From Escherichia coli (GTDB taxonomy: Bacteria > Pseudomonadota > Gammaproteobacteria > Enterobacterales > Enterobacteriaceae), in the NCBI RefSeq assembly GCF_045037415.1, contig NZ_CP173438.1: DNA of 64,000 nucleotides. The stretch is one strand, 5' to 3'. The position numbers are program-made. This document shows positions 52,401 to 55,400 of this stretch, in pieces (the stretch's first letter is position 1; each line of letters begins with the position of its first letter).

Positions 52401-55400
52401 CTTCCTGACGGTGTTGATATTGATAACACTGCGGCTCACATCCTCTTTATAGGTTTCCCAGCCCCAGTCACTGGTGCCAAACGCTCCACAAATCTTTCCC
52501 CATAAACCACTCTGCCGACGGCGACGGGTGACGGTCTCCGTTCTTTCCTCCATAAGCGCACTCAGATTTGTTTTTACCGCGAGCCGGGTTTGTAACTGAC
52601 TGACTGCCGGAAAACTGATTTTTACGGTAAAGCCCTCATCCTCCAGGCGGGTATTGATGCGACCGGCAATGTTTTCTGTGGCGTACAGGGCCGTGCCACG
52701 AAAACCTGTTTCAATCCCGCTGACGATTTTCTCCAGCTCAGGCCGGAACTGTGCTTCAGCCTCACGGTGCAGGCTGGTCACGGTCGATTCGATTTGCGTC
52801 ATCAGTTCAAGGGCTTCCCTGCGATCACTGAATTTTATTTCGGGGCTGTCGGGATCAAAGTCCCGCATCCTGTCATGCTGATTTCCGGTTCCGAAAATAT
52901 CGAGAAAGAAAGCGAATGCGTTTCTCTCCCGGGGCTGCGCTGAATTTTCTTCCTCCAGCATTTGCTGTTCTTTGCGTTTACCGCTTCTGAAATAGTCATT
53001 CAGCTCCTCTTCCAGTGAGGTGCAGACCCCCGTCAGTAATTCCCGGGTTCTGGCATCGATCTCCTCCATGGCCATTCTGACATCAGCGGTCACCTGCTCC
53101 TGACAGTCTGCTATTTCCCGGATATCCTCAAGCAGGCTGGTGATATGCGCCTGCAGTGACTGAATACTTTGCATCAGCCCCTGATGGCGTAACGACAGGT
53201 ATTCACTGATATTTTCTGCATTCTGCATCAGTTTTGCGGCGGCAGAATCAACCGCCAGTGCCGCAGCTCTGGAGTGTGAACTCAGTATGACTTCCGTTAT
53301 CAGTTGATCGATAAGTGAGCCTTCCCACAGGTCTGTCGCCCCTTCAGTTGCCAGTTCGCTGTCTTTACAGACGTAATCTTTTTTCATGCGACCGAAGGCT
53401 TCCCTGACAAAATCATCGACCCAGGCTTCATCAACAGGAAGGGTTCCGTTTTTCCGTAACTCATGAAGCGCACGGTTAGCCAGGTATGCCTGGCGTGAGG
53501 ATCCGGGATAAACGCGGGAGGCGGGCAGCACATCGCTGTTCAGCATTGCCGGTACCTTCTGACAGACTGCATCAGCCCCATCGCCATTACGGTCTTTTTC
53601 ATCAAATTTATTGACCAGCACAAACAGGCGGCCGACAGACACATCAGCAATGGCATTAAGCTCTTTACGAACCTCCTCATCGGCTTTCGAGTTCATCTGG
53701 GTGTAGTCCATCACCGCCAGCACCGCAGAGGCTTTCTGCAGTTGATCCCGCATCATCACTTCCATCTGCGGTTGTCCGGCTTCATTAGGGCCGGGGGTAT
53801 CCAGCAGTGTGAGTGTTCCCTGGCATTCATCCATCCCCACCAGATGGCTGAATTCCACGTCGATCACCGGCAGTTTCTGCACTTCTGCGTATTCATCAAA
53901 AGGAAATTCACTCCCCATTGCCGCAGCAAGACGAACCAGATCGTTTAACGATGCCAGTCCGGTAAAGATTTCCTCCTCCCCGTGGTATTCATTTTTGAGC
54001 CAGCCATCATCCGTCAGAATATCCAGCAGTTCGCGGGTATCCCCGGTTTGCTGCAGGGTCTGTGCGACCTGCTGTCCTGCCGGGGTGGCGAGTTTTTCCT
54101 GCAGTGTGATTAATAAATTGCGGACAGGCTGAATATGTTCCAGATGGAGAACCGGCTCAGTTTTTCCGGGAACGTGGCGGATGAGCGTCGGTACAGAGGT
54201 CATGGGGCGGTTACGGTTAGGCAGAATTTCCTGCCCCACAATGGCGTTGATGGTGGTTGATTTACCTGCTTTCATCGTGCCGACAACAGCCAGCACCATC
54301 TCCCTGCGGGCGGTTTTGATTTGTTCGCCCTCCAGCTCCTCAATTCTTTTCAGTGCTTTCTGTTTATCAAAAAGCAGTCTTTTTTCGTTCTTACTGTCAG
54401 ATAACACATCTGGCTCCTCAACCATTTGCCGGAGCAGATTAATGTTCAGTTGCAAAAGTCGGTCGGCTTCATCACAAAGCAGGGCGATGTTCTTTTCGTG
54501 CATTATTTAACCTTCCTGAGACGCATTTTCATGACAACCACGGAGGAGGTCATTTACCACAAACGATCGTTTATAACGATCGATATGATAGTAACGATCG
54601 ATGTATTCTATTAACTTGAAAAACACAACGCAAGGGGACACCCCGGGTATGGCTGCGTTTGCATAGTGTTTTCATGGAGTTAAAAATCTGTAACAACAGC
54701 CTGGTACATCACCACCGGGTTCAGAAGAAAATCCAGTTCCATACCGCGCGGGCAACAGAAACCACCGAGTCACGGACGGCGCGCAGAACCGTGCGTGCAA
54801 CAGAGGCAATGCAGACACTCTCCGCCGTGTCAAATATCCGGTCCACCGCACCGGTAAACTGTTCACGGGTCTGAGTGCGGACAGACTCCGTGCGCAGTTC
54901 GTCCTGCAGGCGTGTCATCAGAGGGATGGCGGCATGTCCGGGAAGCACTGTCATGAGTGCACTGACCGGGGTGACCTCCCCCTGAAACAGTGCATTACAG
55001 AGTGAGGATTTACCGGCCCCGCTTTTACCCATAATGCCAGGCACGGGTTCGTGACGGGTGAGTTTGCGCAGATGTTCCAGGATGTGACGGGAAATCGGGT
55101 AAGGCAGGGAGGAGAGCGGTTTTTCAATTGCCTCAATGGCATCAGACGGATTCATACATGTATTCCCAGTGAAAAAAGACAAAACCCCGTGCACCGGAAA
55201 GGTGGCGGGGGATTCACGGAGATAATATCTTTCTGAAATTATTTTGAATGCAGGTATATGTGGCTGATTTGTATCAGCTAATGAGTACAGGTCTGAATCT
55301 AATCTGACAGTCCGCTTTGTGCCAAAGGCGGACGCTCAAGTAGATACTGTCCTGACAGTATGCGGTAATCAGAGTTGTTATATATTACTTGCGTCCAAAC

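Follow-up and report, generated by a model that had tools for sequence, protein, structure and literature searches.

In a 64-kb stretch of Escherichia coli DNA (the window), sequence comparison makes it close to certain that the 217-nt spacer between a yeeP remnant and a three-gene operon, encoding a dynamin-family GTPase, an RdcB-family protein and a patatin-like phospholipase, is a homologue of the agn43-type switch fused to that operon. By analogy with agn43, this spacer probably switches the operon ON and OFF epigenetically, that is, the operon would phase-vary. The agn43 gene (flu in K-12) is the textbook Dam/OxyR epigenetic switch: in K-12, the ON/OFF state of flu depends on Dam methylation of three GATC sites overlapped by an OxyR site. 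To our knowledge, this type of switch has been treated in E. coli as specific to the Ag43 adhesin family. The switch type is known; what appears to be new is its unexpected and widespread dynamin/RdcB/patatin cargo.

A first-pass annotation of the window had described three Dam sites in near-identical repeats in a 217-bp gap, with 9- and 14-bp spacers, and had pointed out that a yeeP-like gene, an intergenic region and a GTPase/patatin operon follow each other in the order and orientation of yeeP and flu in K-12. Each of these claims held. The GATC coordinates (Table 1) give spacers of 9 and 14 nt, and each site lies in the context AACGATCG(A/T)T; the core of the spacer reads TAATAGAATACATCGATCGTTACTATCATATCGATCGTTATAAACGATCGTTTG on the minus strand, which carries all the genes of the switch locus. 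The order in MG1655 is yeeP, isrC and flu, and the cargo was identified as dynamin, RdcB and patatin genes from open reading frames (ORFs), RefSeq and NCBIfam.

The kinship with the K-12 yeeP-flu region that the same annotation had raised became clear when we aligned the spacer with this region of MG1655, with the yeeP-cah region of the O157:H7 strain TR01 and with two further Ag43 alleles (fS10a and GABEEC). Common to all of them are CTTG at -35, TAATAGAAT, a CGATC 5 nt further on, TATCGATCGTT and, after 5 more nt, CGATCG. From the -10 box through GATC-III, the window agrees with K-12 in 40 of 51 columns, and the window, K-12 and O157 regions have all three CGATCG boxes in common. The -10 hexamer, its distance to GATC-I and the 9-nt spacing of GATC-II and GATC-III are conserved with respect to K-12; the GATCs stand at +1, +19 and +32 in the window and at +1, +20 and +33 in K-12. 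Over 174 nt, the region upstream of cah in TR01 is 75.8% identical to the window segment. An Ag43/Cah autotransporter locus (flu) can be rejected, as the first ORF past the switch encodes the 794-aa dynamin-family protein and no Ag43 gene lies in between.

The promoter and the start site can be predicted from the same alignment. The -10 hexamer TAGAAT is identical in K-12 flu, in O157 cah, in the other Ag43 alleles and in all fused alleles, and the CTTG that comprises the TTG of the -35 and the preceding C is invariant across the alignment. The K-12 annotation places the 5' end of isrC, the leader RNA of agn43, on the G of GATC-I, 6 nt past TAGAAT. Since the window shares this geometry, we infer by homology that operon transcription starts at 54599. 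Wallecha et al. reportedly mapped the agn43 start to the G of the upstream GATC in 2002, in agreement with the isrC annotation; in the same work, OxyR is said to protect -16 to +42, and a 101-nt fragment is said to be sufficient for Dam/OxyR phase variation. This interval is wholly kept in the window.

The first-pass annotation had also raised an OxyR half-site pattern over the GATCs, and such a pattern is indeed predicted. We scored the consensus ATAGnTnnnAnCTAT-N7-ATAGnTnnnAnCTAT on both strands of the whole window (128,000 positions). A 37-nt tetramer site covering the GATCs matches the consensus at 16 of 20 positions and is the sole site reaching 16 on either strand; in the same register, the K-12 agn43 site scores 14/20. 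The N7 between the half-sites is as in K-12, and half-site 1 is nearer the consensus than its K-12 counterpart. The GATC-I to GATC-II distance, 14 nt here and 15 nt in K-12 and cah, differs within half-site 1, between GATC-I and CTAT.

The make-up of the spacer can be read from its two ends. The order in O157:H7 TR01 is yeeP, switch, cah, a 110-nt spacer, dynamin, RdcB and patatin. The last 44 nt of that cah-dynamin spacer (TCCTCCGTGGTTGTCATGAAAATGCGTCTTAGGAAGGTTAAATA, L005:8288-8331) are identical at 43 of 44 positions to window positions 54547 to 54504, and the likeness of the window to Ag43-type leaders stops at ...AATGACCT, that is at +52. Because its left part aligns to Ag43 regions up to +52 and its last 44 nt match the TR01 dynamin leader, the spacer is, on this evidence, a chimera of an Ag43-type switch (from the yeeP stop codon to +52) and a 44-nt dynamin leader, fused at 54547/54548. 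Missing from the window are the Ag43 leader beyond +52, the adhesin gene and the 66 nt that come next; therefore, the switch directly abuts the 44-nt leader.

The same point seems to have been used more than once. Three 110-nt Ag43-to-dynamin spacers (L005:8222-8331, L023:4903-5012 and L024:4903-5012) are alike over their first 66 nt and then carry two unrelated 44-nt versions; those of fS10a and GABEEC132 part from TR01 at exactly -44, the point of the window junction. This point thus behaves as a module boundary and looks like a recurrent recombination boundary between cassettes. Deletion of Ag43 may have given the fused form, or insertion of an Ag43 cassette may have given the Ag43 forms. 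A blastn search in distant mode with the left 173 nt (E<=1e-5, 28 Gb) reached no K-12-type flu spacer and returned the same 1985 genomes as megablast, so that no closer Ag43-linked parent of the fused switch is identifiable.

The fusion also bears on how the operon is transcribed. Our scan of the ancestral 110-nt Ag43-to-dynamin spacer gave no promoter-like or terminator-like site. Since only 44 nt of this spacer survive in the window, the operon is most naturally taken to be driven by the switch promoter, the only evident promoter in the fused form. For the same reason, the operon may be co-transcribed with the adhesin gene where the latter is present. The Ag43/Cah-to-dynamin junction occurs in 635 genomes, and this possible co-transcription suggests that adhesin and operon are functionally linked there.

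The fused spacer is widespread. Counting only matches with at least 80% coverage, which requires both halves, we found it in 1984 of 5426 complete E. coli genomes (~37%), at several chromosomal positions and nearly always with 95-100% identity; strain SK1144 and many other genomes carry it with 100% identity. The same operon lay downstream in 13 of the 13 other fused loci that we inspected, among them SK1144, MS 124-1, three of O157/Shiga toxin-producing E. coli (STEC) type, poultry, mouse, bovine and human isolates, and MP1. The yeeP gene is truncated, frameshifted or cut by an insertion sequence (IS) in many genomes, and the spacer is kept. One of the 13, strain 720632 (L008, 2281-5619), gives a picture of locus decay: IS600 copies interrupt the dynamin gene and also sit in the spacer upstream of the promoter, and the operon is partly inverted.

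To look at conservation, we used a sample of 14 fused alleles picked for their divergence. None of the 14 shows a change in the -35, the -10, GATC-I or GATC-II, and GATC-III is lost in one; the exact allele without GATC-III is found in 7 genomes, all mouse isolates, compared with 1334 genomes for the exact 54-nt core of the window. Within the -35 to +42 block, key positions were variable in 1 of 24 cases versus 16 of 52 for the other positions (Fisher p=0.009, post hoc), which gives modest support to the maintenance of the switch elements.

An expression study published in 2026 offers a further point of comparison. In RNA-seq of two sibling strains of E. coli MP1, dynamin, RdcB, patatin and two hypothetical genes formed the block that changed most strongly; the change appeared in both of the media used and did not follow the lytic-lysogenic decision (PMC12922286). 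The authors state that the regulation of such dynamin operons has not been described and identified no mechanism, and their paper makes no mention of phase variation or Ag43 (PMC12922286). In the MP1 genome, gene 19720 encodes the dynamin and is followed by RdcB, patatin and two hypothetical genes, and the 217-nt spacer is the same fused switch, identical at 209 of 217 nt and with three GATCs at the same spacing. The changed block begins exactly at the switch, and the upstream yeeP gene (19725) stays outside it. A heritable difference at one unit between strains that passed through a single-colony bottleneck would fit agn43-type ON/OFF switching, as circumstantial evidence. Our full-text literature search, which covered few subscription journals, retrieved no paper linking the operon to Dam or OxyR, and the locus is not listed in the methylome papers on ST131 and O111, in Beaulaurier 2015 or in a gut ePV preprint.

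If the operon is switched as agn43 is, OFF cells would carry reduced OxyR on the unmethylated site, from about -16 to +42, where it would block RNA polymerase and shield the three GATCs from Dam. In ON cells, the GATCs would be Dam-methylated and OxyR excluded, and the operon would be transcribed from +1 (54599). Each state would be inherited, and switching would take place after replication, when Dam and OxyR contest the hemimethylated site. Expression of the operon within a clone would then be bimodal and heritable, with a dam mutant locked OFF and an oxyR mutant locked ON.

Other readings of the site have to be weighed. The number of GATCs is in itself no sign of non-randomness, and we rejected it as such: by a Poisson estimate, a window of this size should hold about 1.5 triples within ~32 nt, 74% of random placements hold at least one, and the window has four triples within 40 nt. 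Such triples being expected, the count is not significant alone, which would speak for a chance cluster unrelated to agn43. Yet the extended alignment to the agn43/cah regions takes in the -10 box and the flanking sequence, no other site in the window reaches the OxyR score, and three of the four copies of the 8-mer AACGATCG in the 64 kb lie in the spacer. We judge that the non-randomness of the site rests on this repeated context and above all on the agn43 homology; the alignments refute a chance origin, to which we attach practically no credence. It also seems quite improbable to us that most transcription of the operon comes from another source, either read-through out of yeeP or an unrecognised promoter, with the GATC/OxyR box at most a roadblock or minor modulator. 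A generic promoter scan would favour this, as it did not list TTGCGT-17-TAGAAT and gave instead an overlapping weak candidate, TTAATA-18-TATCAT. However, the scan missed TTGCGT because this hexamer has only 3 of 6 consensus matches, whereas TAGAAT and the distance to the start match K-12 agn43/isrC; moreover, the changed block of MP1 excludes yeeP, and the many genomes with a damaged or IS-severed yeeP keep the spacer.

We also consider it unlikely that the spacer is a relic, descended from an agn43-type switch but no longer phase-variable. The operon would then be constitutively repressed by the stronger OxyR site, or constitutively on if Dam always wins, and the conserved elements would reflect recent common descent and horizontal spread. 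Either the higher OxyR match or the 1-nt spacing change could shift the balance between Dam and OxyR, the whole block is without reduced variability and GATC-III has been lost in one lineage, all of which could be expected of a relic. However, the elements reported to be essential for agn43 switching are all intact, the key positions are invariant inside an otherwise variable block, and the MP1 siblings differ strongly in exactly the block that follows the switch, which a locked state would not give.

Several observations nevertheless argue against agn43-like phase variation of the operon, or limit what can be expected of it. When the -35 to +42 block was tested as a whole for reduced variability, it turned out to be more variable than its flanks (17/76 versus 12/141 positions in the 14 alleles), so that no blanket purifying selection acts on it. 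The -35 is weak, and GATC-I and GATC-II are one nt closer than in K-12 and cah. The closest Ag43-linked switch that we found is only ~76% identical, and the behaviour of the fused switch may therefore differ, for example by being biased or locked. The agn43 leader, which Wallecha et al. reportedly showed in 2014 to modulate expression, is absent here, so ON-state levels are not extrapolable from agn43. Finally, the difference between the MP1 strains could be a genuine prophage effect, and that study had two replicates and some multi-mapping reads (PMC12922286).

The features of the locus are collected in Table 1.

Table 1. Features of the switch and its operon, in coordinates of the 64-kb window
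Feature	Coordinates	Strand	Remarks
yeeP-like GTPase remnant, 157 aa	54721-55194	-	upstream neighbour of the switch, as in K-12
Spacer, 217 nt	54504-54720	-	between the YeeP remnant and the dynamin-family gene
Ag43/Cah-type regulatory segment	54548-54720	-	yeeP stop codon to +52 of the predicted transcript
Predicted -35 hexamer TTGCGT	54628-54633	-	17-nt distance to the -10; aligned with TTGTCC of K-12
Predicted -10 hexamer TAGAAT	54605-54610	-	inside conserved TAATAGAAT
Predicted transcription start	54599	-	G of GATC-I; 96-nt leader
GATC-I	54596-54599	.	+1 to +4; invariant in 14 fused alleles
GATC-II	54578-54581	.	+19 to +22; invariant in 14 fused alleles
GATC-III	54565-54568	.	+32 to +35; lost (AATC) in 1/14 sampled alleles
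Predicted OxyR tetramer site, 37 nt	54566-54602	-	ATCGATCGTTACTAT-CATATCG-ATCGTTATAAACGAT; overlaps +1
Dynamin-cassette leader, 44 nt	54504-54547	-	Shine-Dalgarno AGGAAGG at 54511-54517
Dynamin-family GTPase, 794 aa, first operon gene	52119-54503	-	NCBIfam NF007368; RefSeq dynamin family protein
RdcB-family protein, 301 aa	51217-52122	-	RefSeq annotation of the identical locus; overlaps the dynamin stop codon
Patatin-like phospholipase, 356 aa	50150-51220	-	RefSeq name patatin-like phospholipase family protein
Terminator-like hairpin and T-run	50114-50130	-	~20 nt past the patatin stop codon; consensus match only

RNA folding of the predicted 96-nt leader gives a structure in which the Shine-Dalgarno sequence GGAAGGU is base-paired to UGACCUCCUCC of the fusion junction (window 54504-54552, minus strand). 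The minimum free energy is -29.8 kcal/mol, with marginal statistics (z = -1.9; 8 of 200 shuffled sequences fold as well). A CCUCC...GGAAGG pair is present also in the TR01 cah-dynamin spacer, and the pairing may serve the dynamin cassette in the control of translation. Rfam gave no match over 54300-55700 even at E<=1, and hence no IsrC remnant is detectable.

The product of the first operon gene matches the NCBIfam CrfC model NF007368 over its full length with 550 bits. As this is below the equivalog cut-off of 1146 bits, the protein is by this measure a paralogue of CrfC/RdcA (YjdA), not an equivalog; such dynamins share ~30% identity with RdcA/CrfC (PMC12922286). At the SK1144 locus, RefSeq names the 301-aa product a diguanylate cyclase regulator RdcB family protein, and the N-terminus of the patatin has weak matches to NCBIfam RssA and to a PADLOC phospholipase-effector model. 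The dynamin, RdcB and patatin ORFs overlap each other by 4 nt. PADLOC gave only weak partial matches for the cargo, including one to LeoBC (21 bits, partial, aa 29-89), and the cargo is accordingly not assignable to a known defence system; an Eleos/LeoABC dynamin anti-phage system was rejected, as this 21-bit match is all that relates the cargo to the LeoA/LeoBC family. Our guess is that the cargo forms a membrane-remodelling or lipid-attacking module, possibly a defensive one. Downstream of patatin lie two adjacent ORFs of 513 and 249 aa (47184-49486, minus strand), at a position where SK1144, whose locus is identical elsewhere, carries a pair of hypothetical genes (678 and 411 nt); by their sizes, the two ORFs may be an IS21-type istA/istB insertion.

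On the other side of the switch, the YeeP remnant results from an in-frame internal deletion: a tblastn search with full-length YeeP matches only aa 9-69 and 212-294 of 294. Its 3' 250 nt are 92% identical to K-12 yeeP, and in identical genomes it is annotated either as hypothetical or as a GTPase family protein. Beyond it, four GATCs lie within 56 nt at 55517-55572 on the plus strand, in a promoter-proximal region close upstream of the ATG at 55584 of a TonB-dependent receptor gene (55584-57749). They fall partly inside a Fur-box-like sequence, TGATCTGGATCATAATTTT, which matches the Fur consensus at 12 of 19 positions when compared by hand. This cluster recalls the Fur/Dam overlap at the promoter of the sci1 type VI secretion system (T6SS) of enteroaggregative E. 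coli (EAEC), and the region may hold a second methylation-sensitive promoter that points away from the yeeP remnant.

When one genome per species was scanned, the box turned up at six loci. In Citrobacter braakii (L017) and C. amalonaticus (L020), TTAATAGAAT..CGATCGATA.CTATTTTATCGATCGTTATTATCGATCG, an agn43-like three-GATC box with the TAATAGAAT -10, stands after a YeeP homologue (60% aa identity) and before genes for small secreted proteins of 154 and 157 aa; these proteins have no NCBIfam match, and neither Ag43 nor a dynamin is found nearby. C. werkmanii (L015) and Raoultella ornithinolytica (L018) have a related box with one more GATC upstream, and the genes after it encode a membrane protein and a secreted protein of 118-131 aa; Kluyvera intermedia (L016) is also among the loci with a candidate box. 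We regard the Citrobacter, Raoultella and Kluyvera boxes as candidate Dam/OxyR switches. The remaining locus, a 1.5-kb contig of a Collinsella sp. metagenome-assembled genome (MAG) (L019), is an E. coli cah-type yeeP-switch with 94% aa identity to YeeP and is almost certainly a binning contamination.

Because the Citrobacter box follows YeeP and precedes other cargo, yeeP and the switch appear to form a travelling unit with changing cargo. We tentatively propose, with rather more doubt than conviction, that yeeP and the three-GATC OxyR box are a portable cassette for phase variation on islands of CP4-44 type, recombined onto different cargos at one constant boundary (+52 on the switch side, -44 on the cargo side) and making a membrane module a bet-hedged ON/OFF trait with epigenetic inheritance in about one third of E. 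coli. The cargos of such a cassette may be Ag43/Cah, dynamin/RdcB/patatin and the small secreted proteins of Citrobacter, and the dynamin/phospholipase membrane module is possibly an anti-phage or envelope-stress system. Under this proposal, the "lysogen-specific" induction in MP1 would be a difference in phase state between clones.

If phase variation of the operon is true, epigenetic phase variation in E. coli reaches beyond surface antigens: a cytoplasmic and membrane-acting three-gene operon would be switched in ~37% of complete genomes, including O157:H7 and the B2 commensal MP1, a close relative of the uropathogenic E. coli (UPEC) strain CFT073. Bulk RNA-seq or proteomics of "isogenic" strains would then report spurious differences from the locus, in line with one published case. 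The dam (locked OFF) and oxyR (locked ON) mutants would give a regulatory handle on the dynamin/RdcB/patatin phenotype.

Compared with systems already described, the cargo and the switch have different relatives. The first two cargo genes are paralogues of the RdcA/RdcB (YjdA/YjcZ) GTPase system that activates DgcE, and of CrfC; unlike this system, the window locus lies on an island and not in the core genome, and a patatin phospholipase gene is attached to it. Concerning the switch, Dam and OxyR reportedly also compete at GATC-containing OxyR half-sites of Salmonella opvAB, giving heritable ON/OFF states. The same competition with heritable ON/OFF is described for Salmonella gtr (P22, LT2) (PMC2909390). 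In gtr and opvAB, however, the four GATCs come in pairs, and OxyR, which is both activator and repressor there, has alternative sites upstream of the promoter, whereas the spacer has a single predicted repressor site overlapping +1, as in agn43. With only three GATCs, and with its one high-scoring OxyR site lying past the -10, the spacer is not a gtr/opvAB-type switch.

The nearest relatives are Ag43 loci themselves. The cah/Ag43 alleles with a dynamin operon (O157:H7 TR01, fS10a and GABEEC132) lie on the same island type, in the order yeeP, switch, Ag43/Cah, dynamin, RdcB and patatin; they have the adhesin gene, its ~370-nt leader region and the 110-nt spacer between switch and dynamin, which are absent in the window. 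A CTAT motif that the K-12 and fused types have in common is missing from the first OxyR half-site of cah-type switches. In the K-12 agn43 (flu) switch, located in the yeeP-isrC-flu spacer of CP4-44, we find the same yeeP neighbour, the same TAATAGAAT -10 box and the same geometry between GATC-I and the start (a predicted one in the window), and likewise three CGATCG boxes with 9 nt between GATC-II and GATC-III and just one OxyR tetramer site, again predicted in the window, which spans +1 to about +37. The window differs from it in that the sequence outside the core has diverged, the 96-nt leader is chimeric and lacks the remainder of the IsrC/agn43 leader, and the cargo is dynamin/RdcB/patatin instead of the Ag43 autotransporter.

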